A program made the translations under genes and the position numbers. Shown one piece after another: positions 75-62,614 of a stretch of 64,000 bases of DNA. The notes below the pieces were generated by a model that was not told the origin of the DNA, did not search any database, and saw only the letters and a program-made list of their open reading frames with translations. Origin of the DNA: Minisyncoccota bacterium. Its GTDB lineage: Bacteria > Patescibacteriota > Minisyncoccia > Phycocordibacterales > Phycocordibacteraceae. The stretch spans positions 29,842 to 93,841 of the forward strand of contig JAGOSG010000003.1 of NCBI GenBank assembly GCA_018062445.1, written 5' to 3'. Position 1 is the stretch's first letter. The number at the start of each line of letters is the position of its first letter.

Positions 75-112
75 GAAGCTGGAAGCCGACAGCTGAAACC
101 TGACAGCTACTC
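75..112. repeat. family A intergenic repeat copy
   Basis: gaagctggaagccgacagctgaaacctgacagctactc; 3' of virB4. Confidence 0.6.
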
Positions 113-1918
113 AGATGCTTCCCTCTTCTGTTGGGCTATTGCAAGCAGTTGAGATGGGTCTGAGGTGATTATTTGGTCTTCAGTGTAGGATGCAATTATT
201 TTTATGGCGACATGTTTGAGCCCCGCGAAGAAAATCCCCTCACCCACATCAGATTCAAGCAGAAGGTATTTTTCTTCCTCCGTGAGGTTGAATGTTTTTT
301 GTACGGCATCTATGGATGTTGGTGATTGCTTCAAAAGAAGTTGGATTGATGAGTTAGTAAGCATCGGCAGTCCGTAGGGTGATTTTAGGAAGTCCTCAAC
401 ATCTTGAGTAATGGTAGCGAGACCAAGATAGTATTTTCTTCCGCGCTTTGCCATTCCGTAAAGGAACGCTGCAGTATCTTCTGATTTCATCATCCACCAC
501 GCCTCATCAATAACAAGAAGTCGTTTGCGCAAATCTTTTCTCACCGCATTCCAAATGAAGTGCGTAATGATGTACATCGCAATCGTTTTCAGTTCATCCT
601 CCATGTTCCGAACCGAGAACGCAACGAACTTTTTGTTGATGTCCACATTGGTTGGTCGATTAATAAAGCCAGACCATGTGCCCTTGGTGTATTTTGTGAT
701 TCTCTGAACTAAAGACTCACTTCCTTCCATGCCAGCAAGTACCAATTCGAAGTCAGAAAGGAGCGGTGGTTCCATGTTGGTGAAGTCGTTCGCACCAGTA
801 ATGTCTTTGAGTGCATATGTTTCTGTAATTGCGCGGTCAATAATTGCATCTTCTTCAGGAGTAAGACCTCCGAGCATTAAGCGAAATAGTCCCACGAGGT
901 TGATGATGTTTGAGCGGAGAATATCAGCTGGCGATTCATCTTCGCGAGGCACAGGCAAATCAAAAGGATTGATGCGATTTTCTGATGAGAGCGAGATATT
1001 GAAAAATCTTCCACCCACCGCATTTGCAAGATATTCATACTCGCTTTCAGGGTCTATAACAATGACCTCCGTGTCGAACATCAATGACCTCAAGATTTCA
1101 AGTTTTGTGCCGTATGATTTTCCTGAACCTGATTTTGCAAAGGTTACCGAATTGTAGTTTTCAAGTGAAAATCTATCAAAAAGAATCAATGATGAGTTGT
1201 GTCTGTTTATGCCGTAGAGAATTCCTTTATCGCTCGTAAGGTCGAAGGAAATAAACGGGAAGAAACTTGAGAGTGGTGCAGAATTCATCTTTGAATTAAC
1301 CGCCAGTTGGTCATCCCCTATTGGTATGACACTCTTGAATCCTTGTTCTTGTTGGAACAGGGCGGGTTTTATGTAGACAAGCTTTGAGTCAAGAATTGAG
1401 CGCATTTCTGCTTCAGTTTTGTCCAATTCGTCTTGGTTTGTGCCGTAAATTGAGATATAGAGGCCTACATCAAATACTCGTTCTTGCGCTTGTTGGAGTT
1501 GATTTCTGAGTTGCTCGATGTCTTGGTAGGCCGTGTCGAGCATTGGATCCCGCACCATCCCTTTTTCTTGACGGGTCATGATTTGGCTCTGTACCTCAGC
1601 AACTTTTTTCTGAAACTTCCGGAGAATTGCCGCAGTGTCTACAGGATGAATGAATATAGAAATATCGAGCACTCGGTCACGATTAATGATTGGTGCGAAC
1701 CATGTTCCCGATAGGAATCGAGGATACGAAATTACGTAGAATGTGCGCACCAACTTGTCGCCCAAGTTCATTTCACGCGGGGTAATTTTCAGAGCTGATG
1801 GTGCAATGATGTCTGCAAAGTCGAGTTTCGCAGCTTCATAAATATCCTTAGGTAAAAAAGGAGTTAGGGCGTCCTTATTTTTCCCAGCGTTACCTAAAAA
1901 TGTATCGAAGATTCCCAT
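107..1918 (-). CDS. virB4: VirB4/TrbE/TraE-family conjugal-transfer ATPase, C-terminal ATPase portion of a split gene
   Basis: Walker A FAKSGSGKSY, Walker B LLVIDEAWWMM, CagE/TrbE/VirB-type N-region; 603 aa. Confidence 0.8.
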   Translation of the reverse strand: MGIFDTFLGNAGKNKDALTPFLPKDIYEAAKLDFADIIAPSALKITPREMNLGDKLVRTFYVISYPRFLSGTWFAPIINRDRVLDISIFIHPVDTAAILRKFQKKVAEVQSQIMTRQEKGMVRDPMLDTAYQDIEQLRNQLQQAQERVFDVGLYISIYGTNQDELDKTEAEMRSILDSKLVYIKPALFQQEQGFKSVIPIGDDQLAVNSKMNSAPLSSFFPFISFDLTSDKGILYGINRHNSSLILFDRFSLENYNSVTFAKSGSGKSYGTKLEILRSLMFDTEVIVIDPESEYEYLANAVGGRFFNISLSSENRINPFDLPVPREDESPADILRSNIINLVGLFRLMLGGLTPEEDAIIDRAITETYALKDITGANDFTNMEPPLLSDFELVLAGMEGSESLVQRITKYTKGTWSGFINRPTNVDINKKFVAFSVRNMEDELKTIAMYIITHFIWNAVRKDLRKRLLVIDEAWWMMKSEDTAAFLYGMAKRGRKYYLGLATITQDVEDFLKSPYGLPMLTNSSIQLLLKQSPTSIDAVQKTFNLTEEEKYLLLESDVGEGIFFAGLKHVAIKIIASYTEDQIITSDPSQLLAIAQQKREASE

Positions 1919-1920
1919 AA

Positions 1921-2592
1921 TTATATAAATGGTGCGTTAGTTTGATCCACAACGATTGGTTTTTCCAATTCCCCAGGATTGAACTCTTTGTAGAGAAGTT
2001 CTATGACCTCTTCAGTGCCGAGAGGAACAGTTCGCACACCTGTTCGGGCCAACCCTTGTTCCACTACCCCCATTCTCTGCTCTAACTGTGTACGGTGTTC
2101 CTCAAAACCAATAGCATTTTCATCTCTCGATGACAGATTTGTCTTCCCAAACACTTTATTTTGCACTGCCTTTTTTATATCAAGAGCTGGTGGAGAGTAT
2201 GGAACAACAATAAAAAAATGTTTACTCATAATGTTCGCTCTCTCAATGAATGTTTTGATGAACTCTATATATTCGCGCACCTGTATTTTCATCAGTTCCT
2301 CTGTCTGCGCTTTAAGTCGTTCCTCCAGAAGTGCTATGTACGGCCTGATATCGAGTTTTCGAGATTGTATGAAAAACTGAACACTGAAATCAAGCGAATT
2401 CATAAAGCTCTGAAATTGCGAGAGTATGGCGTTTTGTTCGTCCTCTGACTTAAGTGCAAAGTTAATACTTGAAGCAAGCATTACACCGACGAGTGTGCCG
2501 CCTTTCATTACCATCACGCCCCCACGGACTTCCTTTACTGGAACGAAGTCCTGAGCCGCTTTTGTTTTTTTTGTTTTTTCGTCACCAGACAT
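1921..2592 (-). CDS. VirB4 N-terminal domain encoded as a separate ORF (split/frameshifted VirB4)
   Basis: DFVPVKEVRGG..INFALKSEDEQ..SVQF matches Gram-positive VirB4 (PrgJ/TcpF-type) N-termini; stop TAA then 2 nt then ATG of the ATPase ORF. Confidence 0.6.
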   Translation of the reverse strand: MSGDEKTKKTKAAQDFVPVKEVRGGVMVMKGGTLVGVMLASSINFALKSEDEQNAILSQFQSFMNSLDFSVQFFIQSRKLDIRPYIALLEERLKAQTEELMKIQVREYIEFIKTFIERANIMSKHFFIVVPYSPPALDIKKAVQNKVFGKTNLSSRDENAIGFEEHRTQLEQRMGVVEQGLARTGVRTVPLGTEEVIELLYKEFNPGELEKPIVVDQTNAPFI

Positions 2593-2600
2593 AATGTAAT

Positions 2601-2635
2601 AAGCTTCCAGCTGTCAGGTTCCGGCTTTCAGCTTC
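2601..2635. repeat. family A repeat, left inverted repeat flanking the four-helix-bundle gene
   Basis: aagcttccagctgtcaggttccggctttcagcttc; encodes the last residues of the ORF. Confidence 0.6.
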
Positions 2636-2997
2636 TCAATCATTGAAGCAAGCATTCGCCCGATCTCTTTTAGGGAAGCGATACAATCATTATACTCCAC
2701 CTCTTTGATGAATCTTAGATCTTTTGCAATTTCAATTTGTGTTTCCAGCTCACAAAGAGAGCCAACTGACATATAAAGAAATTGCACGAAATCTTTCCTG
2801 CTTCTGCGTCCCCTTCCCTCCGCGATATTCGATGGTATGGATATGGCAGACCGTCTCATCTGGGATGTCAGCCCAAACTTTTCTTCAGTCGGAAAAGAAT
2901 TTGTTATTTTATATAAGCGAATTACGAAGTCTTTTGATTTTTGCCACACCACTAAGTCACGATACGAGAGTATTTTTTGATTTTGAGTTGATGCCAT
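2614..2997 (-). CDS. four-helix-bundle protein (23S rRNA intervening-sequence protein family)
   Basis: YRDLVVWQKS..FP..E.FGLTSQ.RRSAISIPSNIAEG.GR signature; flanked by inverted repeats. Confidence 0.8.
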   Translation of the reverse strand: MASTQNQKILSYRDLVVWQKSKDFVIRLYKITNSFPTEEKFGLTSQMRRSAISIPSNIAEGRGRRSRKDFVQFLYMSVGSLCELETQIEIAKDLRFIKEVEYNDCIASLKEIGRMLASMIEKLKAGT

Positions 2998-3005: not shown

Positions 3006-3040
3006 AAAAGCTGGAAGCTGACAGCTGGAACCTGAAACCT
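3006..3040. repeat. family A repeat, right inverted repeat flanking the four-helix-bundle gene
   Basis: aaaagctggaagctgacagctggaacctgaaacct; inverted relative to 2601-2635. Confidence 0.6.
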
Positions 3041-3479
3041 ACCCCCGCTGTTTCTTGTCACTATACATACTCTCCTTTATATCCAAGCTCCACGCTAAGT
3101 CTTTAATTTTGTTTGAAGTGGCTGAGGGGGCATATTTTGCTGGATCTTCAGCGGGTGTTTGCCCAGGTAGAACAATTTCGTCAGGGAGGACAGTTTTTGA
3201 TTGTTTCTTTTCCCAAATATAGAGTTTTGTGCGAAAAAGGTACTGAAAGCCAGATTCGAGAGCGTTTATAAGTGGTCGGTCATTAATTTTATAGAATGCG
3301 AGCCCAGCACCCAACAGTGCGATTGGTCCACCAATAACTATTGCCAACCAGTGAGGCATAACAAACCAGAGGGCTACGAGAAACCCTCCTCCCCCGACGA
3401 GGTATATAAACTGTACTGCGGTCAGAGGGCCGAAAATTTTGTCTTCAACTTCAACGAATTGAGGAACTTGGAATTGCAT
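3039..3479 (-). CDS. PrgI/VirB3-like conjugation membrane protein
   Basis: N-terminus MQFQVPQFVEVEDKIFGPLTAVQF typical of PrgI family; two TM helices; sits upstream of VirB4. Confidence 0.6.
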   Translation of the reverse strand: MQFQVPQFVEVEDKIFGPLTAVQFIYLVGGGGFLVALWFVMPHWLAIVIGGPIALLGAGLAFYKINDRPLINALESGFQYLFRTKLYIWEKKQSKTVLPDEIVLPGQTPAEDPAKYAPSATSNKIKDLAWSLDIKESMYSDKKQRG

Positions 3480-3486: not shown

Positions 3487-3600
3487 AGAGTATAGCGTTT
3501 AGTAGTTAGCGTCTAGTGTTTTTCATCTAGTCATGGCTTCTAAAAACTTTTATAGCCATCGAAGTTAATGGAGTATTTCTTTAGAATTTCCCTAAACTCT
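3487..3600. repeat. family B motif pair in inverted orientation upstream of the PrgI-like gene
   Basis: tatagcgtttagtagttagcgtctagtg ... ccctaaactctatccactaacccc. Confidence 0.45.
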
Positions 3601-3622
3601 ATCCACTAACCCCTTTCCACTG

Positions 3623-4396
3623 TTACTCTACTGGCTCTCGGTACGGGTCAACCCCTCCTTTGTACGCTGGTTTTGGCGCTTCACTTACCTGTGGTTTTAT
3701 CGATGTGGGGTTTTGGGTTGCGGATGGAGTGCTATCTGTGGTTACTCCTTCTAATTTTTCTTCTGAGATTGGCGTTACCGGTATATCCGTTTCAGTTTTT
3801 TTAGTTTCAGGAGATGCATCTGCAACTAGTCCTAGTTTTTCCGCAACAATGCTTACTGAGGGTGTGTTTACGATTTCTTTTAATGTGACCGATGCTGTTG
3901 CGAGGCGTTTTTTTTCAGCTTCAGCCTCTGCTATTTCTTCAGGGTCAACCCAGCCTTCGATTTCTTCTTTTTCTGCGAGAGCGTCTAATTCTGCATCGGT
4001 CGGCATTCTGGTAGCTTCAGCTCCCTCTTGTGGCTTCGGGCCGAACTCTTCAGCATCCCACCCAGGCTCTGGTTCCATGATATTTTCACGGAGACGGCGA
4101 CTCGCCTCTTTGAAGATGCGGTCATTGAGATCATTTACTATCTCACGCATGGTTGCACTGCTAAGCTCAGGAAGAGCTTGATGGAGGTTGGTTTCAAGTG
4201 CCGACATAGGCTCTAGACCAAGCAGGGTAAGATTGGCAACCTTGCTCATTAAACTACCTTGCCATAAGTTAAGGTGGTTTTTTTTGATTAATCCGTCGTA
4301 TATTTCTGTGATTGTGTTCGAGCTTAAAAAGTCGCGAACTGGTTTCGGCAGTTTATCTTTTGCTTCCGCCCTCTCTTCTTTGGAGTATGTTTTCAT
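3623..4396 (-). CDS. hypothetical acidic protein, low-complexity C-terminus
   Basis: ORF in T4SS-like cluster; no recognisable domain. Confidence 0.45.
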   Translation of the reverse strand: MKTYSKEERAEAKDKLPKPVRDFLSSNTITEIYDGLIKKNHLNLWQGSLMSKVANLTLLGLEPMSALETNLHQALPELSSATMREIVNDLNDRIFKEASRRLRENIMEPEPGWDAEEFGPKPQEGAEATRMPTDAELDALAEKEEIEGWVDPEEIAEAEAEKKRLATASVTLKEIVNTPSVSIVAEKLGLVADASPETKKTETDIPVTPISEEKLEGVTTDSTPSATQNPTSIKPQVSEAPKPAYKGGVDPYREPVE

Positions 4397-19058: not shown

Positions 19059-19085
19059 GCGGGTATCCTAACATAGACAGGTCAT

Positions 19086-19152
19086 AGGTGTCAGGTTCCA
19101 GCTGTCAGCTTCAAACCTCTCCCTAGAAGCTGAAACCTAGCACCTTGAACCT
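19086..19152. repeat. family A repeat copy (extended)
   Basis: aggtgtcaggttccagctgtcagcttcaaacc...gaagctgaaacctagcacc; upstream of the traR-like start. Confidence 0.6.
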
Positions 19153-22726: not shown

Positions 22727-22745
22727 AAAGTGTCTGCTGTTACAA

Positions 22746-22788: not shown

Positions 22789-22792
22789 TCAG

Positions 22793-23416: not shown

Positions 23417-23420
23417 ATAA

Positions 23421-44945: not shown

Positions 44946-45476
44946 CTATGCGGGGAACTTTTCTTTGTAGAGTCCCAAGGATTTTGCAAATGCTTCCTTC
45001 GCCTCTTTTGCTCCTTTGAACCCTTGGATATCAACAACATTTTCTTTTCCTTTGAGCTGTTTGTATGTCTCGAAAAAGTGTTGGATTTCTTTGATGGTGT
45101 GCTTGTTTACATCAGCAAGGTCTTTCACCTCGTCCCAGCGCTTATCTTTCACAGGCACTCCGAGTACTTTGAAATCTGATTCGCCATCGTCAATCATTTC
45201 CATGACTGCTACAGGACGTACTTTTACAAGAATGCCGGGGTGAATAGGAAAGGTAGAAAGCACCATAACATCGAGTGCGTCGCCATCATCCCAGAGTGTC
45301 TTTGGTACAAAACCGTAGTCAACTGGATATGGGGCGGATGAGTAGTTCGCTCGATCAAGTTTAATGAGTCCTGTTTCTTTATCGATCTCGTATTTATTGT
45401 GTGAACCCTTAGGAATTTCAATAATGACATTTATCTCGTCTGCAGTACCTGGGTCTATGTCGTGCCAAAGATTCAT
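44946..45476 (-). CDS. ppa: inorganic pyrophosphatase
   Basis: Family I PPase motifs (DGDALDVMVL, EIPKGS.NKYE). Confidence 0.9.
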   Translation of the reverse strand: MNLWHDIDPGTADEINVIIEIPKGSHNKYEIDKETGLIKLDRANYSSAPYPVDYGFVPKTLWDDGDALDVMVLSTFPIHPGILVKVRPVAVMEMIDDGESDFKVLGVPVKDKRWDEVKDLADVNKHTIKEIQHFFETYKQLKGKENVVDIQGFKGAKEAKEAFAKSLGLYKEKFPA

Positions 45477-45479
45477 AAA

Positions 45480-45520
45480 TTAGGTTTTAGTGATTAGGGT
45501 ATAGAGTTTAGTGTATCAAG
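45480..45520. repeat. family B leader motif upstream of ppa
   Basis: aaattaggttttagtgattagggtatagagtttagtgtatc; the same aaattaggttttag start as at the NYN gene. Confidence 0.5.
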
Positions 45521-47460: not shown

Positions 47461-47547
47461 CCTCCTACCGCCTGTCTCGTTTCAGCTCAACATCGGCGGT
47501 CCCCGAAACGGGATCGGAGGAAAATTGAAGCAATTCAATTTTCCTCC
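47461..47547 (+). promoter_or_regulatory. structured pilB 5' leader with mutually exclusive pairings
   Basis: cctcc/ccgcc...ggcgg/ggagg stems plus a cccgaaacggg hairpin, versus a 14-bp hairpin ggaggaaaattgaa-gcaa-ttcaattttcctcc that reuses the ggagg. Confidence 0.35.
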
Positions 47548-47580
47548 ACTAAACCCTATTCACTAAACGCTCAACCCTGC
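47548..47580. repeat. family B leader motif upstream of pilB (reverse orientation)
   Basis: actaaaccctattcactaaacgctcaaccctg. Confidence 0.45.
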
Positions 47581-47605: not shown

Positions 47606-49342
47606 ATGATTGTTCCTGACGCACAATTAAAGACATTCATAATTGATTCTGGCTTAGTATCTCGTAAGGATTTTGAAGCTGCAGAGCGAGATGCAAAAGA
47701 CACAGGGCAACCGTTGAGTGACGCCCTCGTCTCGGGAGGAGTCTTGGGTGAAGACGAACTTCGTCGTATGCAGGCGCACATACTCGGCATTCCTTTTATA
47801 TCTCTTGCTGGCATAAAGATAGATTTTGAAGTTCTCTCGCTTATCCCTGAACCTATTGCCCGCAAGCATAATGTCATTGCTTACAAAAAAACTGCGGATG
47901 CATTGGAAGTTGCCATGCTCTATACCGGCGACTTAGAGCCACTTAATTTCATAAAAAAGAAAATTGGCTTAAAGATTTTGCCTCGACTTACTGACACGGC
48001 ATCTCTGAAAAGTGCACTGCTGCAGTATCAAAAATCCCTCAAGGAGGAGTTTGGCAATATTATTCAGGGCGCGTCACTTTCAATAGAAGATAATCCCTCC
48101 TTAGATACTGCTGGGTTAAAAAAACTTGCTGATGATCTGCCTGTTATAAAGGTGGTTGATACGCTTCTTCGACACGCAATTGTTCAGGGTGCATCTGACA
48201 TACACATTGAACCTTTGGAAGAAATGCTTCTAGTTCGTTATCGCATTGACGGGATACTCCATGACGCAATGGAGTTGCCAAAAAATATTTCAGCAGGAGT
48301 AACAGCACGTATTAAGGTTTTGGCCAATTTAAAACTTGATGAGAAACGTCTTCCGCAAGATGGGCGTTTTAAAATGGAAGCAGATAGAGAGCGAGTGTCC
48401 TTGCGTGTATCGGTGATGCCAACGTATTTTGGAGAAAAGACTGTGATGCGGTTACTTAGAGAAGGTGGTGGAGGTTTTACTCTCGAATCATTAGGTTTCC
48501 ATGGTGTTGCACTAGAGCGGATACATTCAGCCTCTAAGCAGTCGACAGGAATGATTTTGATGACGGGACCAACTGGCAGTGGAAAGACGACGACTCTCTA
48601 TACGATTTTGGATATTCTAAACACTCCTGATGTAAATATTTCTACCATTGAAGATCCTATCGAATATCAAATGCCTCGTGTAAACCAGACACAAGTGAGA
48701 GCCGACATTGGATTTACTTTCGCATCGGGACTCCGCTCACTTGTGCGTCAAGATCCCGACATAATAATGGTAGGAGAAATTCGCGACACTGAAACAGCAT
48801 CGCTCGCCATTAATGCAGCACTCACTGGACACCTCGTCCTTTCAACTTTGCACACTAACTCAGCTGCAGCGACTATCCCTCGGCTCATGGACATGGAAGC
48901 CGAGCCGTTTCTTCTCGTATCAACACTCCGTGTCATCGTTGGGCAGAGACTTGTTCGTCGTCTGGCATCGGACCGTACTGAATATATTCTTTCTGAAGAG
49001 GAAATTGCACAATTAAAATCTGCTGTAGATATTGATAGGGTGCTTGCTGTTTTGAAAGAAGAAAAACTCATTCCTAAAGAGGCAACTATTAAAGAAATTC
49101 CATTCTTTAAACCAAAAGAAAATGGCGTCTCCCCTGATGGATATTCGGGACGTATCGGTATACACGAAGTATTGCCAGTGACGCATGAAGTACGAGAGCT
49201 TATTCTCAAGCGAGTTTCGGCCGATGACATCGAGCTACAAGCAAAGCGCGAAGGTATGCTTACAATGGTTGAGGATGGTATTTTCAAGGCAGTTACCGGA
49301 GTTACAACCATTGAAGAAGTTCTCCGAGTTATATCTGAATAA
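47606..49342 (+). CDS. pilB: type IV pilus assembly ATPase PilB (GspE family)
   Basis: N-terminal GspII_E domain, Walker A GPTGSGKTTT, Asp and His boxes; 578 aa. Confidence 0.9.
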   Translation: MIVPDAQLKTFIIDSGLVSRKDFEAAERDAKDTGQPLSDALVSGGVLGEDELRRMQAHILGIPFISLAGIKIDFEVLSLIPEPIARKHNVIAYKKTADALEVAMLYTGDLEPLNFIKKKIGLKILPRLTDTASLKSALLQYQKSLKEEFGNIIQGASLSIEDNPSLDTAGLKKLADDLPVIKVVDTLLRHAIVQGASDIHIEPLEEMLLVRYRIDGILHDAMELPKNISAGVTARIKVLANLKLDEKRLPQDGRFKMEADRERVSLRVSVMPTYFGEKTVMRLLREGGGGFTLESLGFHGVALERIHSASKQSTGMILMTGPTGSGKTTTLYTILDILNTPDVNISTIEDPIEYQMPRVNQTQVRADIGFTFASGLRSLVRQDPDIIMVGEIRDTETASLAINAALTGHLVLSTLHTNSAAATIPRLMDMEAEPFLLVSTLRVIVGQRLVRRLASDRTEYILSEEEIAQLKSAVDIDRVLAVLKEEKLIPKEATIKEIPFFKPKENGVSPDGYSGRIGIHEVLPVTHEVRELILKRVSADDIELQAKREGMLTMVEDGIFKAVTGVTTIEEVLRVISE

Positions 49343-50623: not shown

Positions 50624-50656
50624 GAGGTGTCAGCTTTCAGCTTTCAGCTTTCAGGG
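50624..50656. repeat. family A repeat copy (triple GCTTTCA)
   Basis: gaggtgtcagctttcagctttcagctttcaggg; between pilC stop and the pilin start. Confidence 0.6.
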
Positions 50657-50658
50657 AA

Positions 50659-51146: not shown

Positions 51147-51788
51147 ATGACACATATGATCAAGAAACATTCACAATCACGCATTCTGCTCGCAAGGCGA
51201 GCATGGCAAAAATCTACAACAGGGATGAGTTTGATAGAGGTTTTGGTGACCCTCGCGGTCGTTTCATTGATTATGGTGAGTGCATCAAATTCGGTATTGG
51301 CGCTCTACAAAACAAACAACACAGGGACTCGCGCCCTAACGCAAATTAGCAGCGCTCGGTCTGCGCTCACGGCATTGATGACGGACTTGCGGAGCGTGGC
51401 GTATGGCAATGGCGGTTCGTATCCAATTGTGTCGATGTCTGCTTCGTCATTAACTTTTTTTAGTAACATTCCAAACAGCACTGGAGCTACGCGTTTTCAA
51501 TATCAAATTAATGGAACAACACTTTCTCGGAGCCAAGTGAGCGCAGGTACTCCGCCAACATACAGTGGTGTTCCAGTGAGTGAGTCGCTAGTCACATACA
51601 TACGGAGCGGCGCTGGCTCTGCGGCACTTTTCCGCTATTACGATCGCAACGGTATTGAAGTTACTGATATGAATCGAGTAACTGATGTAGCGTCAATACT
51701 GGTTTCTATTGATGTACTTGCTCCGGGAATGAGTACACCGTTTATACTTACTGCCACTACCACGCTTCGTAATTTAAAAACACCATGA
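51147..51788 (+). CDS. prepilin-type N-terminal domain protein (minor pilin)
   Basis: TTG|MSLIEVLVTLAVVSLIM with E+5. Confidence 0.7.
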   Translation: MTHMIKKHSQSRILLARRAWQKSTTGMSLIEVLVTLAVVSLIMVSASNSVLALYKTNNTGTRALTQISSARSALTALMTDLRSVAYGNGGSYPIVSMSASSLTFFSNIPNSTGATRFQYQINGTTLSRSQVSAGTPPTYSGVPVSESLVTYIRSGAGSAALFRYYDRNGIEVTDMNRVTDVASILVSIDVLAPGMSTPFILTATTTLRNLKTP

Positions 51789-53011
51789 AGAAGGTTCCAG
51801 GTTCCTACTCCAAAAGTGCGGGAGGGTTTATGACCGTTTTTGTACTTATTGCTTCTGCCGTTTTTTTCTTTCTGCTCTCTGATTTTATGAGTGCGCTCAC
51901 ACTTGAGAGAACTAAGGAGCGCTTTGGGTCCGAGACTGACAAAGCATTCAGTATTTCTGAGGCAGGCCTTGAATACTATCGATGGCATTTCGCAGAATTT
52001 CCTGCCGATGTACAAGATGGTACTGGTTCGTCGGGGCCATATGTACATGCGGTTTTGGATCCAGAAAGCGGAGCTACTGTCGGGAATTTTTCTCTCGCTA
52101 TCTCAGGCATTACTTCCTGCGGGGTGCTCACCTCTGCAACCGTACGTTCGACTGGTTGGGCATTAGAAAATGCGTCACACACAAAAACACTTATTGCTCA
52201 GTATGGGACGGAGACGTTGGCGGCATCAACAAGTCCAGCAAAGTCTGATGGGGCAGTGATTAATACCACCCTCACAAACTTAAAAACATATGCACAAACA
52301 TCGGGGGTATATCTTGCGCCTGCATCGGGTGGAGCATATGGATACAAAATTGTTTTCAAGTCGAACGGGACATTTGATGCGAGTCCGGTGACTGCAGTTA
52401 CTGAGATAATGGGATATTCAGATGATGAAGGTTGGGAGGAAGAAAACACAATAATTACTTCAATTGGCGCCACCATAAATTACGCCATACCTGCAGGATG
52501 TCCCGTTGTCTTTGTAGAAGATTCTGTTTGGCTTGAGGGGGTCGTGTCTGGAAAGGTTACATTCGCCGCTGCAAATATGGCGAGCCCCAGTATTAAGCCA
52601 GACATTATTATTACTGGAAATATTACCTATGCGCATGCATATGATGATGGGTTGACTGCAATTGCTGAGCGATCAGTATTGATTTCACTCCAATCACCCG
52701 ATGTGTTGCAGATGAATGGTGTTTTCGTGGCAGGCACTGGCCATTTTGGGCGACATCGCTATGATTCCTCGGGTACGCACGCTGTTCCTACTGGCCTGCA
52801 GTCATATGTACTTCGTTCCACGCTAAATACCTTCGGTACATTTGCATCGCCTGGTACTGTTGAAACAAAATGGACATCCTCTGGCGCGTTTATTTCGGGC
52901 TATAGCACTCGGACAGATGTCCACGATGCTCTCTTGGCACAACTGCCACCACCATTCACTCCAGCAATAGCCAGTGGATTTCGTATTATTGATTGGCGTA
53001 CGCAGGACTAG
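51785..53011 (+). CDS. putative minor pilin / PilX-GspK-like pilus protein
   Basis: N-terminal hydrophobic segment AGG|FMTVFVLIASAVFFFLL without E+5; 4-nt overlap with the preceding pilin gene. Confidence 0.45.
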   Translation: MKKVPGSYSKSAGGFMTVFVLIASAVFFFLLSDFMSALTLERTKERFGSETDKAFSISEAGLEYYRWHFAEFPADVQDGTGSSGPYVHAVLDPESGATVGNFSLAISGITSCGVLTSATVRSTGWALENASHTKTLIAQYGTETLAASTSPAKSDGAVINTTLTNLKTYAQTSGVYLAPASGGAYGYKIVFKSNGTFDASPVTAVTEIMGYSDDEGWEEENTIITSIGATINYAIPAGCPVVFVEDSVWLEGVVSGKVTFAAANMASPSIKPDIIITGNITYAHAYDDGLTAIAERSVLISLQSPDVLQMNGVFVAGTGHFGRHRYDSSGTHAVPTGLQSYVLRSTLNTFGTFASPGTVETKWTSSGAFISGYSTRTDVHDALLAQLPPPFTPAIASGFRIIDWRTQD

Positions 53012-53012: not shown

Positions 53013-53090
53013 TACTAGTAGGGGTTAGGGTTTAGAGATTAGCGTTTAGGGAAAATTCCAATTCAAAGCTCTTTCCTAAACCCTTCTCAA
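53013..53090. repeat. family B motifs in both orientations upstream of tpiA
   Basis: ggggttagggtttagagattagcgtttaggg ... ctttcctaaaccc. Confidence 0.5.
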
Positions 53091-53108
53091 ACATGTTACG
53101 ATTTCTCA

Positions 53109-57598: not shown

Positions 57599-59008
57599 AT
57601 GATATATCATACAGAGTTTTTCAAGAGTTTTTTTGTTCGAAATGTCGTTCCGATACTCTGCATTGGGATTGTTGTTGGCGCAGGAGCGTATTCGGTACTG
57701 GTGCCTGAAAAACTTCATTCGATTTTTGAAGACTCAGTTGATACTAGTGTTGTCATTGAAGGCGTTGTAGTGAGAGACTCTGACCAGCGTGAACGCACCA
57801 CACACCTTGTTGTGAAAGTGCAAAAGTTGAATGGTGTTTCTGTTGCAGAAAAAGTACGAGTACTTCTCTTTGCGGATTCGTTTGAGACTGCCGTCTATGG
57901 TGATCGCATTAGTGTAAAAGGAAAACTTAAAAAACCTGAGCCTTTTGAAACTGACTCAGGGCGAACATTTAATTATCCAAAGTATCTTCGTGCACATAAC
58001 ATTCTCTACACCATTTCATTTCCGCAGGTTACGAAACTGGCAACAGGAGAGGGGCATCCAATTGTTGCGGGACTTCTATCTGTTAAACATTTATTTATTA
58101 AAGGAATTGAGCGTGCAGTTCCAGAACCTCAATCCGCACTTCTTGCGGGTTTACTTCTCGGTGAAAAACAATCGCTCGGAGAAAAAATAACAGGGGCATT
58201 TAGGAATGCTGGCGTGGTGCACATTATTGTTCTCTCTGGCTACAACGTTGCGCTCGTGATTCAGTGGATTTCTTTTGTTTTTCTAAAAATATTTTCACGC
58301 AAAGTTGCATATAGTTTCTCTGCGGTTTTTGTCATTGGCTTTGCAGTGATGACTGGCGGATCTGAGACAACTATTCGCGCACTCATCATGGCACTCTTAA
58401 TGATGGTTGCAACTGTTTTGCATCGGCCAAAGGCAGCACTTCGTATGCTCGCAATTGCGGCAGCGGTGATGGCTCTTTGGAATCCATACATTGTTCTTTA
58501 TGATCTTTCGTTCCAGCTCTCCATTCTTGCAACGCTCGGACTTATACTCTTTTCTGAAACAATCGCCAGTCGTTTGAAGTTCATTCCCGATTTTAGATAT
58601 TTCCCATTTCGTGAAATTGTTTCAACTACTCTTGCAACGCAGGTGACGGTGTTGCCACTTCTTATATTTTCTATCGGGGCGGTGTCATTAGTTTTTTTGC
58701 CAGCTAATGTTTTGGTTCTTCCTGCAGTTCCGATTGCAATGTTTGTTGGATTCTTTGCATCAATTATCTCACTTGTCTCTCCGGTACTTGCTTTCCCGTT
58801 AAGCATTCTCGGTTATGGAATTCTTTCCTATATTATTTCTATAGCAACATTTTTCGGCTCATTGCCGTTTGCATCACTCCCTATTCCACGAGAGTGGATG
58901 TGGCCACTTTTGATGATACTTGGATTTTTGTATGGAGTGGCAGGCTTGTTGTTTTTGCGTCTTAGGAAGGGAAACGCGATTGAACCACAGCGCCATTCAA
59001 ATTTTTAA
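57599..59008 (+). CDS. comEC: ComEC/Rec2-family DNA-uptake channel protein (DUF4131 plus competence domain; lacks MBL domain)
   Basis: N-terminal OB-like DUF4131 region then polytopic Competence domain; 469 aa. Confidence 0.8.
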   Translation: MIYHTEFFKSFFVRNVVPILCIGIVVGAGAYSVLVPEKLHSIFEDSVDTSVVIEGVVVRDSDQRERTTHLVVKVQKLNGVSVAEKVRVLLFADSFETAVYGDRISVKGKLKKPEPFETDSGRTFNYPKYLRAHNILYTISFPQVTKLATGEGHPIVAGLLSVKHLFIKGIERAVPEPQSALLAGLLLGEKQSLGEKITGAFRNAGVVHIIVLSGYNVALVIQWISFVFLKIFSRKVAYSFSAVFVIGFAVMTGGSETTIRALIMALLMMVATVLHRPKAALRMLAIAAAVMALWNPYIVLYDLSFQLSILATLGLILFSETIASRLKFIPDFRYFPFREIVSTTLATQVTVLPLLIFSIGAVSLVFLPANVLVLPAVPIAMFVGFFASIISLVSPVLAFPLSILGYGILSYIISIATFFGSLPFASLPIPREWMWPLLMILGFLYGVAGLLFLRLRKGNAIEPQRHSNF

Positions 59009-59537
59009 AGAATGCCTCTATATAGGTCTTTTTTTCGGCTGGAGTGTAGTCCACCATGTAGGCGTGTTCCCACATATCAAGAGCGAGGATTGTCTTTGTG
59101 TCATTGAGTTGTCCTAGCTCGTGGTCAGCAACAAAGTGAGTGATGAAGTTTTTGGTGGTCGCATCATATGAAAGCAGTGCCCAGCCGATGCCTCGCATCA
59201 TTCCGACTGCTTTGAATTCGTTCTCCCAAGATTCATATGAGCCATATTGCGCCGCCAGCGCATCTTTCAGAGGGTCTTCGATAGGGGTGGGCGTTCCCTC
59301 CCACTGTGAGAAGTAGTGTTCGTGCATTCGCATGCCGTTCCACTCAAATCCGATGCGTCGAGTTACTTCAGCGAGAGCGTATGCATTTTTTTCAGAATCT
59401 TTTTTTAAGTCTACAGCAGTTTCCTCAAGTGTGTTTAAGAATTTTACATAGCCCTCATAGAGCTTGATGTGTACTTCCAGCTGTTTTGGCGAAATACCGT
59501 CTAAGTTTCCAAAGTTGAATTTTTTTGCAGTGTACAT
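58962..59537 (-). CDS. sodA: Fe/Mn superoxide dismutase
   Basis: DMWEHAY signature; convergent 47-nt overlap with the comEC 3' end. Confidence 0.85.
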   Translation of the reverse strand: MYTAKKFNFGNLDGISPKQLEVHIKLYEGYVKFLNTLEETAVDLKKDSEKNAYALAEVTRRIGFEWNGMRMHEHYFSQWEGTPTPIEDPLKDALAAQYGSYESWENEFKAVGMMRGIGWALLSYDATTKNFITHFVADHELGQLNDTKTILALDMWEHAYMVDYTPAEKKTYIEAFFKNLNGAVVQSRFPS

Positions 59538-59578
59538 ATGGGTGAGGGTATAGCGTTTAGGGGATAGGGTTTAGGGAA
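59538..59578. repeat. family B leader motif upstream of sodA
   Basis: atgggtgagggtatagcgtttaggggatagggtttaggg. Confidence 0.5.
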
Positions 59579-59623
59579 ACATCTTCTGAGTAGCTACTCT
59601 AGCCTTGGTGCCATTATATCATT

Positions 59624-60680: not shown

Positions 60681-60923
60681 TTAAATAATATTAGCTTTTT
60701 TGAGTGTCTTAAAAGCACCACGCTTCGCAATAGTCTTTACAGCACGAGCTGAAAGAAGAAGCGAGATATGCTTATTAAGCTCAGGCACAAAGATTTTGTG
60801 CTTTTGTAGGTTTGCCTTACGGCGCACCTTGCCGCATGGGTTGTACTGCGTCGCACGAGTGCGATTTGAATACCTCCCTCCGACGAGAGATGATTTACCA
60901 GTTACAGCGCATGCCTTAGCCAT
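60681..60923 (-). CDS. rpmB: 50S ribosomal protein L28
   Basis: MAKACAVTGK..; 80 aa. Confidence 0.9.
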   Translation of the reverse strand: MAKACAVTGKSSLVGGRYSNRTRATQYNPCGKVRRKANLQKHKIFVPELNKHISLLLSARAVKTIAKRGAFKTLKKANII

Positions 60924-60971
60924 AGTTTTTAGAGGATACCATCCTAAAAATGAAAAGTAAATCCCACGCTC

Positions 60972-61010
60972 AGAGTTTAGTTATTAGCCACTAGGGTTTA
61001 GGGACGATTC
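60972..61010. repeat. family B leader motif upstream of rpmB
   Basis: gagtttagttattagccactagggtttagggacg. Confidence 0.45.
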
Positions 61011-61017: not shown

Positions 61018-61734
61018 CTAGTTACTCTTCTCTAGGTACGCAACAATGGTACGACGCTTCCATGCACTTCCGTCAGCATGCTTGTGTTTGAAAGATTTTT
61101 CGATTTTGTGGATAGTGAAATAGGGCTCGAAGAACTCGCGCAGTGCCTCTTCTGTCCACACATATTCAGCCGTGTGTATTTCTGGGTGAATGTACATTCC
61201 CACCTCATCTCCTGGGCTTTCGCGAAGTAGGCGCTTGGCATGAGAATCGTCATCAAGAAGGAACGATTTAAAGAAAAGCCACCCTCCTGGTTTTAAGACA
61301 CGGAGTATTTCAGTTCGTAATTGTTCCCGTCCGGCAGTCTTCAAAACATGCGAGCTCATCATGTCGAGAGTGATAGTGACTGATGCATCTGGCAAGGGAA
61401 TTGGCTTCTCCATATCTTGTACAAAAAATTTGATAGGCAAACCTTCGCCTGCTTTTTTGGCGACAGTGATTGCTACTTCTGAAAGATCGTACCCGACGCC
61501 GCGCATACCAAATGTGTTTGCAAGATATATGAGGTTGCGTCCGTTACCGCATCCAATATCAAGTGCCTGTGCGGTTACATTAAGGAATTTTTTTCCATAT
61601 TCGCGCATCAAGAATCTTCCGAACTTTTCCAAGTCTTCAGATGGTTCGACAGAGAGTGCAAGGTGAGGATTTGCACCACCAGTGCGGTCTGATTTACCGT
61701 ATTCTTTATTCCAGAAATTGTTTTGTCGACTCAT
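61018..61734 (-). CDS. class I SAM-dependent methyltransferase
   Basis: ALDIGCGNGRN motif I; VLKPGGWLF post-I. Confidence 0.8.
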   Translation of the reverse strand: MSRQNNFWNKEYGKSDRTGGANPHLALSVEPSEDLEKFGRFLMREYGKKFLNVTAQALDIGCGNGRNLIYLANTFGMRGVGYDLSEVAITVAKKAGEGLPIKFFVQDMEKPIPLPDASVTITLDMMSSHVLKTAGREQLRTEILRVLKPGGWLFFKSFLLDDDSHAKRLLRESPGDEVGMYIHPEIHTAEYVWTEEALREFFEPYFTIHKIEKSFKHKHADGSAWKRRTIVAYLEKSN

Positions 61735-61737
61735 GAG

Positions 61738-61775
61738 AGTAGCTGTCAGGTTCTAGGTGTCAGCTTTCAGCTTTA
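61738..61775. repeat. family A repeat copy
   Basis: agtagctgtcaggttctaggtgtcagctttcagcttt; directly upstream of the methyltransferase ATG. Confidence 0.6.
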
Positions 61776-61798
61776 AATCTGAAATTTAACCTCTTTAA

Positions 61799-62539
61799 TT
61801 ATTTGAGAGCACCTTGGTGTCCGCGACTCCATTCGTAGAAGACTATTGCGGCGGAAGCGGCAGCATTTAATGATTCGGTGCGTGGATGTACAGGAATACG
61901 AAGCAACACATCGCAGAGACTTTCAGTTTTCTCACGAATGCCTTTTCCTTCATTCCCAACGATAAACAACGATGGTTCACTGAAAGATTCATCAATTAAA
62001 GATTGTGCGCCTTTACCTGCAAGTCCGTATGTCCAAAATCCTTTCTCCTTAAGAAGACGAATGGTTTGATTTACATTGCCAATAGTTACTAGAGGAATAC
62101 GGAATGCCATACCTGCTGATGTTTTTACAACCGCCCCTGTTATTGGAGCTGTTCGGTGTTCAGGGATTAAGACAGCGGAAAGTCCCATCGCTGCAGCGGA
62201 GCGAATTATTGCGCCTACATTGTGTGGGTCCTGCAATTCTCCTAGAAGTACCAATGCTGGCTTTTTAGAAATATTGAGTGTCTGTATGAATGTTTCAAAA
62301 GGAACCAAGAGCGCCTCGGTATCGATTATGGCGACGATACCTTGATGCACTGCATCGTTGCCCACCATATCGCTCCCTTTGAGTGTAGCGATAGTTATTT
62401 TTTTCTTCTCTAAAAGATTTTTTATTTTTTCATCATCAAAGACCGGCGAAAGGAAAACTTTCTTAACTACATGCGTGGCATGCTCGACCGCCTCAGCGAC
62501 GGCGTGCTTTCCATATATATAGACTTTTTCTCGTTGCAT
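61799..62539 (-). CDS. rlmB: 23S rRNA (guanosine-2'-O)-methyltransferase RlmB / SpoU-TrmH family
   Basis: N-terminal SpoU_sub_bind domain, LVLLGELQDPHNVGAIIRSA motif. Confidence 0.8.
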   Translation of the reverse strand: MQREKVYIYGKHAVAEAVEHATHVVKKVFLSPVFDDEKIKNLLEKKKITIATLKGSDMVGNDAVHQGIVAIIDTEALLVPFETFIQTLNISKKPALVLLGELQDPHNVGAIIRSAAAMGLSAVLIPEHRTAPITGAVVKTSAGMAFRIPLVTIGNVNQTIRLLKEKGFWTYGLAGKGAQSLIDESFSEPSLFIVGNEGKGIREKTESLCDVLLRIPVHPRTESLNAAASAAIVFYEWSRGHQGALK

Positions 62540-62560
62540 AGTGCGAGTGTAGCATCGAAG

Positions 62561-62614
62561 AGCTTTCAGGTGCCAGCTTTCAGCTTGGGTTAAAACCTGA
62601 CACCTATAACCTGA
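62561..62614. repeat. family A repeat copy in a divergent promoter region
   Basis: agctttcaggtgccagctttcagcttgggttaaaacctgacacctataacctga; between the rlmB and M50 protease starts. Confidence 0.6.

Follow-up and report, generated by a model that had tools for sequence, protein, structure and literature searches.

The repeats dispersed through the 64-kb stretch of DNA analyzed here (the window), termed family A, represent one flavor of a class of intergenic modules found throughout the genome, each built of three to six units with a 7-nt period and polar with respect to strand. These modules occupy the unconstrained DNA from a stop codon to the start codon or −10 box of the next gene.

Identification of heptamer arrays

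The initial annotation described nine family A copies as nonrandom, dispersed, intergenic, and close to gene starts, and this was borne out: all nine were found exactly where it placed them or a few nucleotides away. The consensus exceeded chance, with five matches in the window at ≤3 mismatches and none in 100 dinucleotide shuffles; the remaining copies are more diverged and were recovered by a repeat search of the window. Each copy is a tandem array of three to six degenerate heptamers with YAG every 7 nt. The family is larger than described: it merges with a second flavor, B (GGGTTTA-type), and with mixed arrays of the same class, giving a total of 20 arrays of at least three units in 17 of the ~46 intergenic gaps. 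The 7-nt periodicity, the link to the B flavor, and the strand polarity relative to genes had been missed, and two presumed single copies (19086-19152 and 62561-62614) each consist of two arrays in inverted orientation.

Among periods 3 to 12, 7 was the sole enriched short period (36 scanning windows with at least 20 of 28 self-matches; none at the others), and 13 runs of at least four units with YAG at 7-nt spacing were present, compared with 0.06 expected. The units follow the grammar Y-A-G-[G/C]-[T/G]-[T/G/A]-[T/C/A]. A and G occur in 78 of 78 units, while the other four positions vary; the units were chosen by their YAG period, and this invariance is meaningful only because the 10 arrays detected by sequence-blind period-7 autocorrelation also show it. 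In family A arrays, GGT-type units lie 5' of GCT-type units, and the array ends in CAGCTTTTT. This ordered composite of nonidentical units recurs unchanged in order at many slots, where copies of the 27-nt composite are near-identical (96% over 26 to 28 nt).

Position and polarity relative to genes

Arrays are oriented such that the G/T-rich strand, which carries YAG, has its 5' end toward the adjacent gene, regardless of the direction of that gene. This end adjoins the nearest gene in 18 of 20 arrays (p = 2e-4, rpmB gene model included), and the same polarity was found in independent Paceibacterota loci with gene models from crude ORF calls (46 versus 17, p = 1.7e-4). In the mRNA sense, YAG thus follows stop codons and CTR precedes start codons, the CTR-sense arrays stopping 4 to 19 nt short of the start. 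Long gaps carry both orientations: gaps with a gene on either side hold two opposed arrays, which in most cases form a hairpin with each other.

In three arrays, all A-type and on the minus strand, the TAG that opens the first unit is the upstream gene's stop codon: 76..112 (TAGCTGT, CAGGTTT, CAGCTGT, CGGCTTC, CAGCTTC), where the VirB4/TraC-like ATPase gene 107..1918 ends (107-109); 3006..3041 (TAGGTTT, CAGGTTC, CAGCTGT, CAGCTTC, CAGCTTT), where the PrgI-family gene 3039..3479 ends, the array lying 13 nt from the start of gene 2614..2997; and the arm 19116..19153, which begins with the stop of gene 19151..20455. YAG is likewise in sense in the B-type arrays directly after the stops of genes 3623..4396 (3585..3621, minus strand, ending in GTTTAGGGAAA) and 51785..53011 (53013..53056, plus strand), as well as in the A-type array 22743..22790 (minus strand), which follows the NYN-domain gene 22793..23416 at 12 nt from the stop and precedes both an intrinsic terminator and the pnp leader. 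The CCA-adding/poly(A) polymerase gene 26282..27745 is followed, 63 nt beyond its stop, by a short B-type array of three units (26195..26224, minus strand).

CTR is in the sense of the downstream gene in the B-type array 3487..3523 (plus strand; the partner of 3585-3621), 13 nt upstream of the PrgI gene start; in the A-type arm 19072..19115 (plus strand), upstream of the dksA/traR-like gene 18684..19058 and followed by an extended −10-like TGtTAGGAT at −15..−7; in the B-type array 45475..45518 (plus strand), which fills the 46-nt NusA-pyrophosphatase gap; in the short B-type array 47542..47578 (minus strand), 40 nt upstream of the PilB (T2SSE) gene 47606..49342; and in the A-type array 61734..61777 (plus strand), 5 nt upstream of the methyltransferase gene 61018..61734. 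The same holds for 2601..2635 (plus strand; A-type, with one degenerate CGG unit), which precedes gene 1921..2592 at a distance of 9 nt from its start. The description of all copies as intergenic is nearly right: this array extends over the seven final codons and the stop of the 23S-IVS-protein gene 2614..2997, and the others have no coding overlap beyond stop codons. Further plus-strand arrays are located 6 nt upstream of the NYN gene start (23417..23460; mixed, CTAG-rich), between tRNA-Gly and the trypsin-like protease gene 36534..37694 in a divergent gap, 5 nt upstream of the latter (37694..37737; mixed/A-type), and 13 nt upstream of the Fe/Mn-SOD gene 58962..59537 (59540..59581; B-type, five G3+ tracts). 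A partial complementary B-type arm (53065..53091, minus strand) precedes tpiA and is followed by an extended −10-like TGtTACGAT at −15..−7. The divergent SpoU/M50 gap contains two A-type arms, one on the SpoU-methylase side (62561..62590, plus strand), with TGcTACACT at −15..−7 of the SpoU start, and one on the M50-peptidase side (62590..62619, minus strand), whose last CTG supplies the TG of TGaTACACT at −15..−7 of the M50 start.

There are two exceptions to the polarity rule. The clear one is the A-type array 50625..50657 (plus strand; three CAGCTTT units and a final CAGGGAA), which has the PilC stop (50621) on one side and the true pilin start (50658) on the other and in which YAG is in sense beside a start codon. 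The other, to the rule that the 5' side is the one nearer a gene, is the B-type array 60965..61008 (plus strand), 16 nt from the methyltransferase stop and 47 nt from the start of rpmB (L28; 60681..60923, minus strand), with CTR in sense. Pfam searches showed that the neighboring genes had been identified essentially correctly (DksA/TraR zinc finger, trypsin-like protease, pilin, methyltransferase, M50 peptidase, and pnp); the four-helix-bundle gene encodes a 23S-rRNA-IVS four-helix-bundle protein. The genes beside arrays are functionally unrelated to one another.

Folding

Inverted array pairs form hairpins at four slots of the window. The 19072-19115 and 19116-19153 pair folds at −30.1 kcal/mol, the pair in the SpoU/M50 gap at −29.1 kcal/mol (z, −3.1; minus strand), and the tpiA allele, whose second arm is only partial, at −22.7 kcal/mol (z, −1.7). 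Two-array alleles at the slots exchanged between strains folded well, at −30 to −61 kcal/mol (z, −1.6 to −5.6). Single arrays showed no significant RNA structure when folded against background (z, ~0), and the RNA of 45475..45518 is wholly unstructured (minimum free energy [MFE], 0).

Variation between strains and distribution in the phylum

The modules are remodeled fast at the DNA level, as shown by perfect tandem expansions, by exchange of whole A and B cassettes, and by the recurring ordered composite. In conspecific strains with identical flanking proteins, the same slot holds either an A-type or a B-type cassette. Upstream of pnp, an A-type array in the window corresponds to a B-type array in L001, with flanks >95% identical. 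At the dksA slot, L146 has a nonhomologous B-type hairpin despite flanks of 99.7% and 97.5% identity and an identical dksA (375/375). At the tpiA slot, (GCTTCCA)5 and an A-type arm replace the B-type cassette of the window in L153 and L154, the flanks in L154 being 98.7% and 99.3% identical to those of the window. Polarity was kept in all swapped alleles. The retention of hairpins across nonhomologous alleles could mean selection for RNA or DNA structure, which would speak against filler.

Other arrays were conserved: 3006..3041 is identical in L163, which also retains 3487..3523 though its upstream gene content differs, and 23417..23460 is nearly identical in L001 and L150. The array 59540..59581 is identical in six strains, and such unchanged slots speak against the explanation favored below.

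Across 80 loci (1.36 Mb) of Paceibacterota (CPR), the phylum of the host, whose genome is tiny, period 7 was the only enriched noncoding period (71 arrays versus 4 to 9 at control periods), and its arrays are patchily distributed. The flavors are lineage specific. L002 to L005, the closest relatives beyond L001, have almost no arrays, which fits nonessentiality but also dependence on a lineage-specific factor. TAG-N4 arrays with differing N4 were present in the unrelated lineages L012, L025, L026, L031, L041, L045, L049, and L060; this recurrence in several other lineages and the A-G invariance resemble sequence-specific recognition more than filler. Among period-7 arrays detected sequence-blind phylum-wide, AG/CT is conserved in only about a third.

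Possible origin and function

Shine-Dalgarno (SD) cores were found in only 7 of the 63 window genes, whereas TAnnnT boxes starting at −15..−11 precede 25 of 63 (about 4 expected). At dksA, tpiA, SpoU, M50, and PilB, an extended −10-like box at about −15..−7 lies between the array and the ATG, which predicts leaderless transcripts without the array. In the SpoU/M50 gap, both arrays are upstream of both predicted −10 boxes and would not be transcribed, suggesting that any function is at least partly exerted at the DNA level.

Our best guess from these sequence comparisons, with a probability of roughly 45%, is that the arrays are polar boundary or filler modules acting at the DNA level and remodeled by slippage and template copying. 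Slipped-strand or template-switch copying from one array to another, rather than transposition, would account for their origin and spread. Instead of gene-specific regulatory sites, they would be boundary or filler elements of a general kind in transcription units that are compact and mostly leaderless. Polarity may be maintained by the copying mechanism itself or by selection, possibly to keep the sense strand before starts free of G-rich, SD-like, or structured sequence, or to separate neighboring units by a hairpin or roadblock.

Less probably, the arrays could serve in cis as binding sites of an oligomeric protein that recognizes A-G at 7-nt intervals in nucleic acid; as transcription enters or leaves a gene, the protein would act there as a polar insulator or terminator or would protect the 3' end. 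The HutP site consists of three XAG motifs with 4-nt spacers (XAG-N4-XAG-N4-XAG), of which A and G are read specifically (PMC2425495), and its register is identical to the YAG-N4 of the window arrays. The A-G invariance, also in the arrays found sequence-blind, the TAG-N4 arrays of eight unrelated lineages, and the survival of polarity through allele swaps would suit such a reader. However, half of the arrays have YAG on the strand that is antisense to the neighboring gene, the position of the SpoU/M50 arrays upstream of both −10 boxes means that an RNA-level reader cannot be general, AG/CT is mostly not conserved across the phylum, close relatives lack arrays at the same slots, and no HutP, TRAP, or other candidate reader was found among the 63 window proteins. 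Of the readings offered initially, a REP/MITE-like element comes nearest, given the hairpin pairs and the cassette exchange, but MITE hallmarks (terminal inverted repeats and target-site duplications) were not seen at the arrays. We consider it unlikely that the arrays are REP/REPIN-like selfish elements, in which the inverted pair would be mobilized by a RAYT-type (Y1) transposase encoded elsewhere and single arrays would be decayed halves. The folding pairs at four slots, lineage-specific flavors, patchy distribution, near-identical 27-nt composites, and cassette differences between near-identical strains agree with this, but single arrays are neither palindromic nor folded, the units are direct heptamer repeats unlike REPs, replacement is always in the same slot with polarity kept and without target duplication, and no Y1 transposase is encoded in the 64 kb. 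In addition, the polarity rule is common to plain Xanthomonas/Nostoc heptamer simple sequence repeats (SSRs), which are not associated with mobile elements (PMC4692102).

A role as unstructured, G-poor 5' leaders or translational enhancers (S1/Csp-type binding) of SD-less genes, as proposed for TAACTGA repeats (PMC4679880), seems quite improbable. The end of CTR-sense arrays shortly before starts, the MFE of 0 of B-type leaders, the scarcity of SD cores, and the match to Beggiatoaceae in orientation and lack of a ribosome-binding site (RBS) favor it, but about half of the arrays follow stops in the opposite orientation, and the −10-like boxes at the five genes named above lie between array and ATG. 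The proposal of shared promoters with CTGACA as a −35-like element, or of operators for one regulator, is largely refuted, and we regard it as very unlikely. CTGACA-17/18-TAnnnT matches occur at two arrays, upstream of the M50 and dksA genes, and several arrays lie within the region from −16 to −50 at predicted leaderless promoters. However, no other array overlaps a low-stringency sigma-70-like match, the number of such matches does not exceed chance (26 versus 32 expected; 19 versus 27), CTGACA is spaced variably from the nearest −10-like box when measured by hand (12 to 19 nt), and no −35-like hexamer is present in the B-type alleles of the same slots. Arrays also occur directly after stops, in convergent gaps, and in 21- to 46-nt operon junctions, and their neighbor genes share no common function. 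G-quadruplex formation, proposed for GGGNATC-type heptamers (PMC4692102), is scarcely credible here: some B-type arrays have three to five G3+ tracts at 7-nt spacing and obey the polarity rule of the published repeats, but family A arrays, without any G3 tract, are also subject to this rule and take the place of B-type arrays in their slots.

Relationship to known heptamer repeats

In polarity, unit number, turnover, and intergenic location, the arrays belong with the known bacterial intergenic heptamer repeats, i.e., cyanobacterial STRR, the Xanthomonas/Nostoc GGGNATC type, and Beggiatoaceae TAACTGA. Family A thus joins a long-known class. The Xanthomonas/Nostoc heptamers obey a polarity rule relative to genes, prefer four units (4 to 5 per array), and accompany the same genes in relatives despite extensive variation in sequence and length (PMC4692102); the polarity rule and rapid turnover are shared with the window arrays. 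TAACTGA repeats are forward oriented, in 2 to 6 copies, 1 nt upstream of RBS-less start codons (PMC4679880). Their orientation toward start codons is shared with the window arrays, and the antisense unit, CAGTTAT, fits the unit grammar of the latter.

Internal structure of the repeats

The dispersed intergenic repeat family described in the initial annotation (here family A) is real and highly non-random. All nine listed copies are present as described, and the 34-nt consensus recurs well above chance, with five copies at ≤3 mismatches compared to none in 100 shuffles; the remaining listed copies are more diverged members that were recovered by repeat finding. The decisive feature, which had been missed, is the internal 7-nt tandem structure. 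Every listed copy is a short tandem array of 7-nt units, such as TAGGTGT CAGGTTC CAGCTGT CAGCTTC. Tandem Repeats Finder (TRF) reported period 7 or 14 at 12 sites of the window, and in a sequence-blind autocorrelation covering periods 3 to 12, period 7 was the only enriched short period (36 autocorrelation windows at ≥20/28 vs 0). A search for C/T-A-G at 7-nt spacing identified 20 arrays with at least three units in the window, and 13 runs of at least four units were observed where 0.06 would be expected. The G/T-rich strand carrying this triplet is referred to below as the YAG strand and the complementary sense as CTR.

Family A accounts for about half of the 20 arrays and is built of the units GGTGTCA, GGTTCCA, GCTKTCA, and GCTTTCA. 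The other arrays are of a second flavour, B (GGGTTTA, GCGTTTA, and GAGATTA), or are A/B mixtures (23417-23460, 37694-37737, and 61734-61777). Because both flavours occur within single arrays, we treat them as one class, with the pooled unit grammar Y-A-G-[G/C]-[T/G]-[T/G/A]-[T/C/A]. Family A shows order beyond that of a simple repeat: GGT-type units are placed on the 5' side of GCT-type units, the arrays terminate in CAGCTTTTT, and an ordered 26- to 28-nt composite is shared by different intergenic gaps (slots) at 96% identity. The arrays do not consist of the near-perfect units of a strict simple sequence repeat, as the TRF matches were 68 to 100% and the units within an array mostly differ. 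The only perfect arrays are 50630-50654 and the (GCTTCCA)5 of two strain contigs, L153 and L154. In the window, no Rfam family was matched at gathering thresholds besides four tRNAs.

Position and polarity relative to genes

The window is 89% coding, and the 20 arrays are located in 17 of its ~46 intergenic gaps (37%). The description of the copies as entirely intergenic thus applies to all 20 arrays, none of which overlaps a gene beyond a shared stop codon, but not to a further copy at 2601-2635, which spans the final seven codons of a gene. In 18 of the 20 arrays, the 5' end of the YAG strand is the gene-proximal end (p = 2e-4, with the rpmB gene call corrected), typically at a distance of 4 to 14 nt from the nearest gene, and the polarity is the same whether that gene ends there (same strand) or starts there (opposite strand). 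Read in the mRNA sense, YAG arrays follow stop codons, several of them opening with the stop codon TAG itself, and CTR arrays (…ACCTGACACCTA…, …CCCTAAACCC…) are found before start codons. At starts, about 12 arrays are in the CTR sense and stop 4 to 19 nt short of the ATG; the YAG strand is antisense to the adjacent gene in about half of the arrays.

Four two-gene gaps contain facing arrays, one in each orientation, which form inverted doublets (3487-3621, 19072-19153, 53013-53091, and 62561-62619). Divergent gaps make up 4 of the 17 array slots, and arrays are not under-represented there. Based on Pfam, the adjoining genes have no common function: they encode VirB4, PrgI, a 23S-IVS protein, DksA/TraR, an NYN-domain protein, Pnp, a protease, NusA, a pyrophosphatase, PilB, PilC, a pilin, TIM, SOD, ribosomal protein L28, two methyltransferases, and an M50 peptidase.

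Two of these neighbourhoods deserve a comment of their own. The short minus-strand ORF 60681-60923 is annotated by Pfam as L28 (rpmB) in identical public contigs, and the overlapping plus-strand ORF 60700..60960, favoured by the longest-ORF caller, is spurious. The 23S-rRNA-intervening-sequence gene (four-helix bundle, bAvd-like; 2614..2997) is located within a VirB4/PrgI/TrbL type IV secretion cluster and is flanked by two inverted family A arrays (2601-3041) that are 89% complementary over 27 nt, an arrangement that resembles an IVS-style stem enclosing an ORF.

Folding, promoters, and apparently leaderless transcription

Secondary structure, suggested initially as a check, was confirmed for the inverted array pairs, which fold well (-30.1, -29.1, and -32.6 kcal/mol; z -1.6 to -3.1), but not for single arrays, which are indistinguishable from shuffles (z -0.8 to +0.9; two with an MFE of 0). 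As inverted pairs alone fold, RNA structure was rejected as a general property of the arrays. Ordinary bidirectional intrinsic terminators are present elsewhere in the genome, so the arrays are not its terminators; a terminator consensus scan showed no enrichment and one weak terminator-like overlap.

The proposal that the CTGACA motif provides a -35 element, or that the copies are shared operator modules, was not borne out. Sigma-70-like matches were below the shuffle means, with only two array overlaps, and the spacing from CTGACA to the -10 box, measured by hand, was uneven (12 to 19 nt) rather than a fixed 16 to 18 nt. Moreover, many arrays are placed after stop codons, and B-type alleles replace A-type alleles at identical promoters.

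A Shine-Dalgarno core at -18..-4 was found in only 7 of the 63 window genes. A -10-like TAnnnT box starting at -15..-11 of the start codon is present in 25 of the 63 genes, compared to about 4 expected; 13 of the boxes are at exactly -12, and 9 of the 25 have an extended TGn. Examples of the -10-like boxes are located at 11240-11251, 29564-29575, 53094-53108, and 62612-62626. Judged by these sequence signals, the genome appears to be largely leaderless, in which case many start-adjacent arrays, as well as both arrays of the SpoU/M50 gap, would be upstream of the transcription start.

Distribution beyond the window

Judged by its pnp neighbourhood, the window is from a Candidatus Paceibacterota bacterium (Parcubacteria, CPR). 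In 80 Paceibacterota pnp loci together with the window (1.36 Mb), 71 arrays of period 7 and 44 of period 14 were identified, compared to 4 to 9 arrays for non-triplet control periods in the same sequences. Crude longest-ORF calling misplaced 22 of the 71 inside ORFs, most of which were spurious short ORFs or reading frames extended too far at the 5' end. The arrays are distributed patchily among lineages. Many lineages use units of their own, frequently of the form TAG-N4, and L041, L049, L060, L064, and L069 are, like the lineage of the window, rich in arrays, whereas the next-closest relatives (L002 to L005) have almost none. In independent Paceibacterota and metagenome loci oriented by YAG, the polarity was followed in 46 cases and violated in 17 (p = 1.7e-4). 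When the arrays were oriented by G+T skew and all loci were pooled, the bias was weak (41 vs 26 within 15 nt); the YAG triplet had to be used for orientation.

A metagenome scan with the 18-mer AGGTKTCAGGTTCCAGCT returned 57 matches, which is roughly the chance level by a rough estimate, and ~25 of them are inside heptamer arrays. Family A-like arrays were found in contigs with a GC content of 0.43 to 0.68. Among viral contigs, there were three matches, with arrays in one contig (L139). Two metagenome contigs with a GC content of about 0.57 (L113, 2385-2681, and L124, 3645-3941) carry ~300-nt arrays of the near-perfect heptamers GTGGACA, GTGGTCA, GCTCTCA, and GCTTTCA, indicating that long STRR-like arrays of the YCAG unit type exist outside this lineage. 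We found no reports of heptamer repeats in CPR bacteria in the literature searched.

Exchange of arrays between strains

In orthologous slots, the flanks are conserved, and the array is sometimes replaced wholesale. In the slot upstream of pnp, the window has a CAG-type array, and the syntenic relative L001 (85 to 95% nucleotide identity in the pnp neighbourhood) has a TAG-type array at the same place, with flanks that are >95% identical. The same was seen among much closer strains. Eight public contigs encode an identical DksA, and in the dksA slot (after gene 19151..20455) seven of them have the A-type hairpin of the window, one with a few substitutions. The eighth, L146, has a non-homologous B-type hairpin related to the L001 allele, while its flanks are 99.7% and 97.5% identical to those of the window and its dksA is identical at 375/375 positions. 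In the tpiA slot, the window shares a B-type cassette with L152 and L155, and L153 and L154 have a perfect (GCTTCCA)5 after the stop codon, followed by a spacer and an A-type CTR arm. The TIM protein of the latter two is identical to that of the window, and the flanks of L154 are 98.7% and 99.3% identical.

In both polymorphic slots, the swapped segment starts at the upstream stop codon and ends immediately ahead of an extended -10-like box (TGtTAGGAT or TGtTACGAT) at -15..-7 of the downstream ATG. The polarity is retained in all alleles. Those with two arrays fold at -30 to -61 kcal/mol, with z values down to -5.6; the tpiA allele of the window, whose second arm is only partial, reaches -22.7 kcal/mol (z -1.7). 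No duplicated flank was seen at the swapped alleles in these comparisons, and other slots are unchanged in up to six strains. The exchange of A and B cassettes within fixed slots of near-identical strains is a new observation. Strains with identical flanking genes and either A- or B-type cassettes constitute a natural experiment, through which public metagenomes and metatranscriptomes can be used directly to test models of slippage, copying, and selection.

Public short-read contigs of the same species (L141, L147, and L150) begin or end inside arrays, L141 starting in the array upstream of pnp, indicating that heptamer repeats fragment the short-read assemblies of this population. In practice, arrays can thus break assemblies and can also be absorbed by over-extended ORF calls.

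Comparison with known heptamer repeats

The closest counterparts are the GGGAATC repeats of Xanthomonas and the GGGGA[C/T]T (STRR1) repeats of Nostoc described by Rehm et al. in 2015 (PMC4692102). These are non-coding, with four units preferred, and are nearer to the 5' neighbouring ORF whatever its orientation, which puts the G-rich strand in sense behind stops and in antisense ahead of starts. Some overlap stop codons, inverted copies can form stem-loops, and the same inter-gene slots are occupied with extensive sequence and length variation between close relatives, next to genes without a common function (PMC4692102). The window arrays share the 7-nt tandem units with a preference for ~4, the non-coding bias, the polarity, the stop codon overlap, the reuse of slots with variable arrays, the unrelated neighbours, and the stem-loops of inverted copies. 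However, their units are degenerate, each consisting of YAG and a variable, G/T-rich N4, where the published units are near-perfect; G tracts are lacking in family A, the host has an ultra-small CPR genome, and divergent gaps show no depletion of arrays. The adherence of a G-tract-free flavour to the same polarity rule is a new observation.

MacGregor (2015) reported TAACTGA direct repeats in marine Beggiatoaceae, some Cyanobacteria, and Bacteroidetes (PMC4679880). They occur in 2 to 6 forward copies, most often 1 nt upstream of start codons lacking an RBS, and are almost all intergenic, with "split" sets containing related 7-mers and some that run into the end of the preceding ORF; for BOGUAY, a single inverted repeat was described (PMC4679880). 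Heptamer units in small copy numbers, mixtures of related units, the intergenic location, and occasional overlap with an upstream ORF end are all seen in the window, where start-adjacent arrays are likewise forward-oriented a few nucleotides before RBS-less starts. The CTGA core is common to family A units (AACCTGA and AAGCTGA), and the antisense unit CAGTTAT fits the YAG grammar and the orientation of the window arrays. In contrast to the TAACTGA repeats, about half of the window arrays follow stops in the opposite orientation, and inverted pairs are common. The tandem TAACTGATAACTGA is absent from both strands of the window, which contains one single TAACTGA.

As summarized in PMC4679880, a survey of 2007 ranked heptamers first in abundance among the long simple repeats of many bacteria, and polymerase slippage has been proposed as their origin. 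The cyanobacterial STRR and long simple sequence repeats (LSSR; Mazel 1990 and Mrazek 2007) are introduced in PMC4692102 and PMC4679880 as tandem heptamers over-represented in intergenic DNA, with a sporadic phylogenetic distribution and arrays that can be long and perfect. Measured against these summaries, the intergenic enrichment and sporadic distribution agree, whereas the window arrays are short, degenerate, and composite, with a conserved unit order. The window contains none of the three canonical STRR units and, apart from the single TAACTGA, no other published heptamer unit. It does have the traits of the LSSR/STRR class, namely, a 7-nt head-to-tail unit, a non-coding bias, proximity to the 5' neighbour, and variation within slots (pnp, dksA, and tpiA). 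The arrays are therefore better described as a CPR member of the known class of polar heptanucleotide repeats. Their presence in 37% of the intergenic gaps extends the heptamer phenomenon to a phylum that is expected to purge non-functional DNA.

Possible origin and role of the arrays

Our preferred reading, to which we assign a probability of roughly 45%, is that the arrays, as members of the heptamer repeat class, are polar modules that serve as boundaries or filler at the DNA level and are generated and homogenised by slippage and template-switch copying and tolerated or selected solely in the orientation seen. The main rivals are selfish elements, protein-binding sites, and translational leaders. 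REPIN-like selfish elements would share with the arrays the extragenic location, the many dispersed copies, and the lineage-specific sequences, and the REP-like reading of the initial annotation agrees with the hairpin-forming inverted doublets, but these occupy only 4 of the 17 slots, and single arrays do not fold alone. In addition, unlike REP, BIME, and REPIN elements, the arrays lack palindromic single units, have an internal periodicity of 7 nt, and are swapped as cassettes within fixed slots instead of being inserted at new sites. A Pfam search of the 63 window proteins revealed no RAYT (Y1 transposase) and no other transposase or trans-acting candidate. A MITE origin, also suggested initially, is not supported, as the arrays are direct repeats and neither terminal inverted repeats nor target site duplications were seen. 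By analogy to HutP, the arrays could instead be sites for a protein reading A-G every 7 nt. The HutP site in the Bacillus hut leader is (XAG-N4)3, with A-G invariant, the first base free, and 4-nt spacers (PMC2425495), and the window arrays have at least three XAG triplets with 4-nt spacers in the identical register. However, HutP has just one regulatory site, on the RNA of one operon, and the arrays are on either strand and genome-wide; about half being antisense, they are not sense-strand leader or terminator sites, and no window protein matched PF09021 (HutP). If the arrays were unstructured translational leaders, CTR-sense B arrays would suit, being wholly unstructured (MFE 0), but a purely RNA-level role cannot be general, given the apparent leaderlessness. 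Rho rut sites are a further idea, against which stands that the A-type CTR strands are not G-poor. Cyanobacteria are not known to encode Rho, yet their heptamer repeats obey the same rule.

Several other roles were considered and rejected as general explanations. G3 tracts, of which a G-quadruplex calls for ≥4 per array, number zero in family A arrays and three to five in some B-type arrays, which rules out G-quadruplex formation as a general property. Since family A substitutes for G-rich arrays in the same slots, G-quadruplexes cannot unify heptamer repeats either. ComEC and type IV pilus genes are present, but a DNA uptake sequence is at odds with arrays that are degenerate, purely intergenic, and different between near-identical strains. 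A three-frame stop barrier (TAG every 7 nt) does not fit family A, which uses CAG, or the antisense half of the arrays.

A bolder reading, which we consider unlikely, is that the arrays mark the activity of a DNA-level system, so far unrecognised and shared across phyla, by which G/T-rich heptamers would be read or written in a strand-polar manner at gene boundaries. Such a system might be a polar boundary or roadblock protein that would insulate the back-to-back leaderless transcription units of a streamlined genome, or it might add repeats from a template, or switch templates, at intergenic breaks. From each gene, the G/T-rich strand extends 5' to 3' toward the gap centre; its direction is that of a telomere G-strand, and the B unit GGGTTTA equals TTTAGGG. 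If true, either form would account for the polarity, the inverted pairs, and the cassette swaps within fixed slots, as well as for the rule common to CPR, Xanthomonas, Nostoc, and Beggiatoaceae.

Other sequence features of the window

Second copies of the tRNA-Gly(GCC) and tRNA-Gly(UCC) 3' ends are located 166 and 201 nt downstream, respectively (28219-28250 and 28385-28416; 37840-37859 and 38041-38060, the second pair being identical at 20/20 positions). From their sequence, these duplications resemble attL/attR-type sites left behind by elements that had inserted in tRNA genes. A perfect 33-nt palindrome, GTATGTATCACTGTAGTACTACAGTGATACATA, is present in two identical copies 652 nt apart (35725-35757 and 36377-36409), which flank the Trp-repressor-like gene region 36052..36438. 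An ORF-free gap of ~390 nt (23461-23846) separates rpsO (S15) from the NYN gene; it is ~90% conserved with L001, had no Rfam match at the gathering score, and could encode a non-coding RNA or represent a decayed gene. Besides the heptamers, the window has a single non-triplet periodic signal, an AT-rich tandem repeat with a 13- to 14-nt unit, ATATTTAAAATAT, in ~3 copies (42260-42318), which is located in a 273-nt gap upstream of the trigger factor gene and might be an iteron or a DNA-unwinding element.
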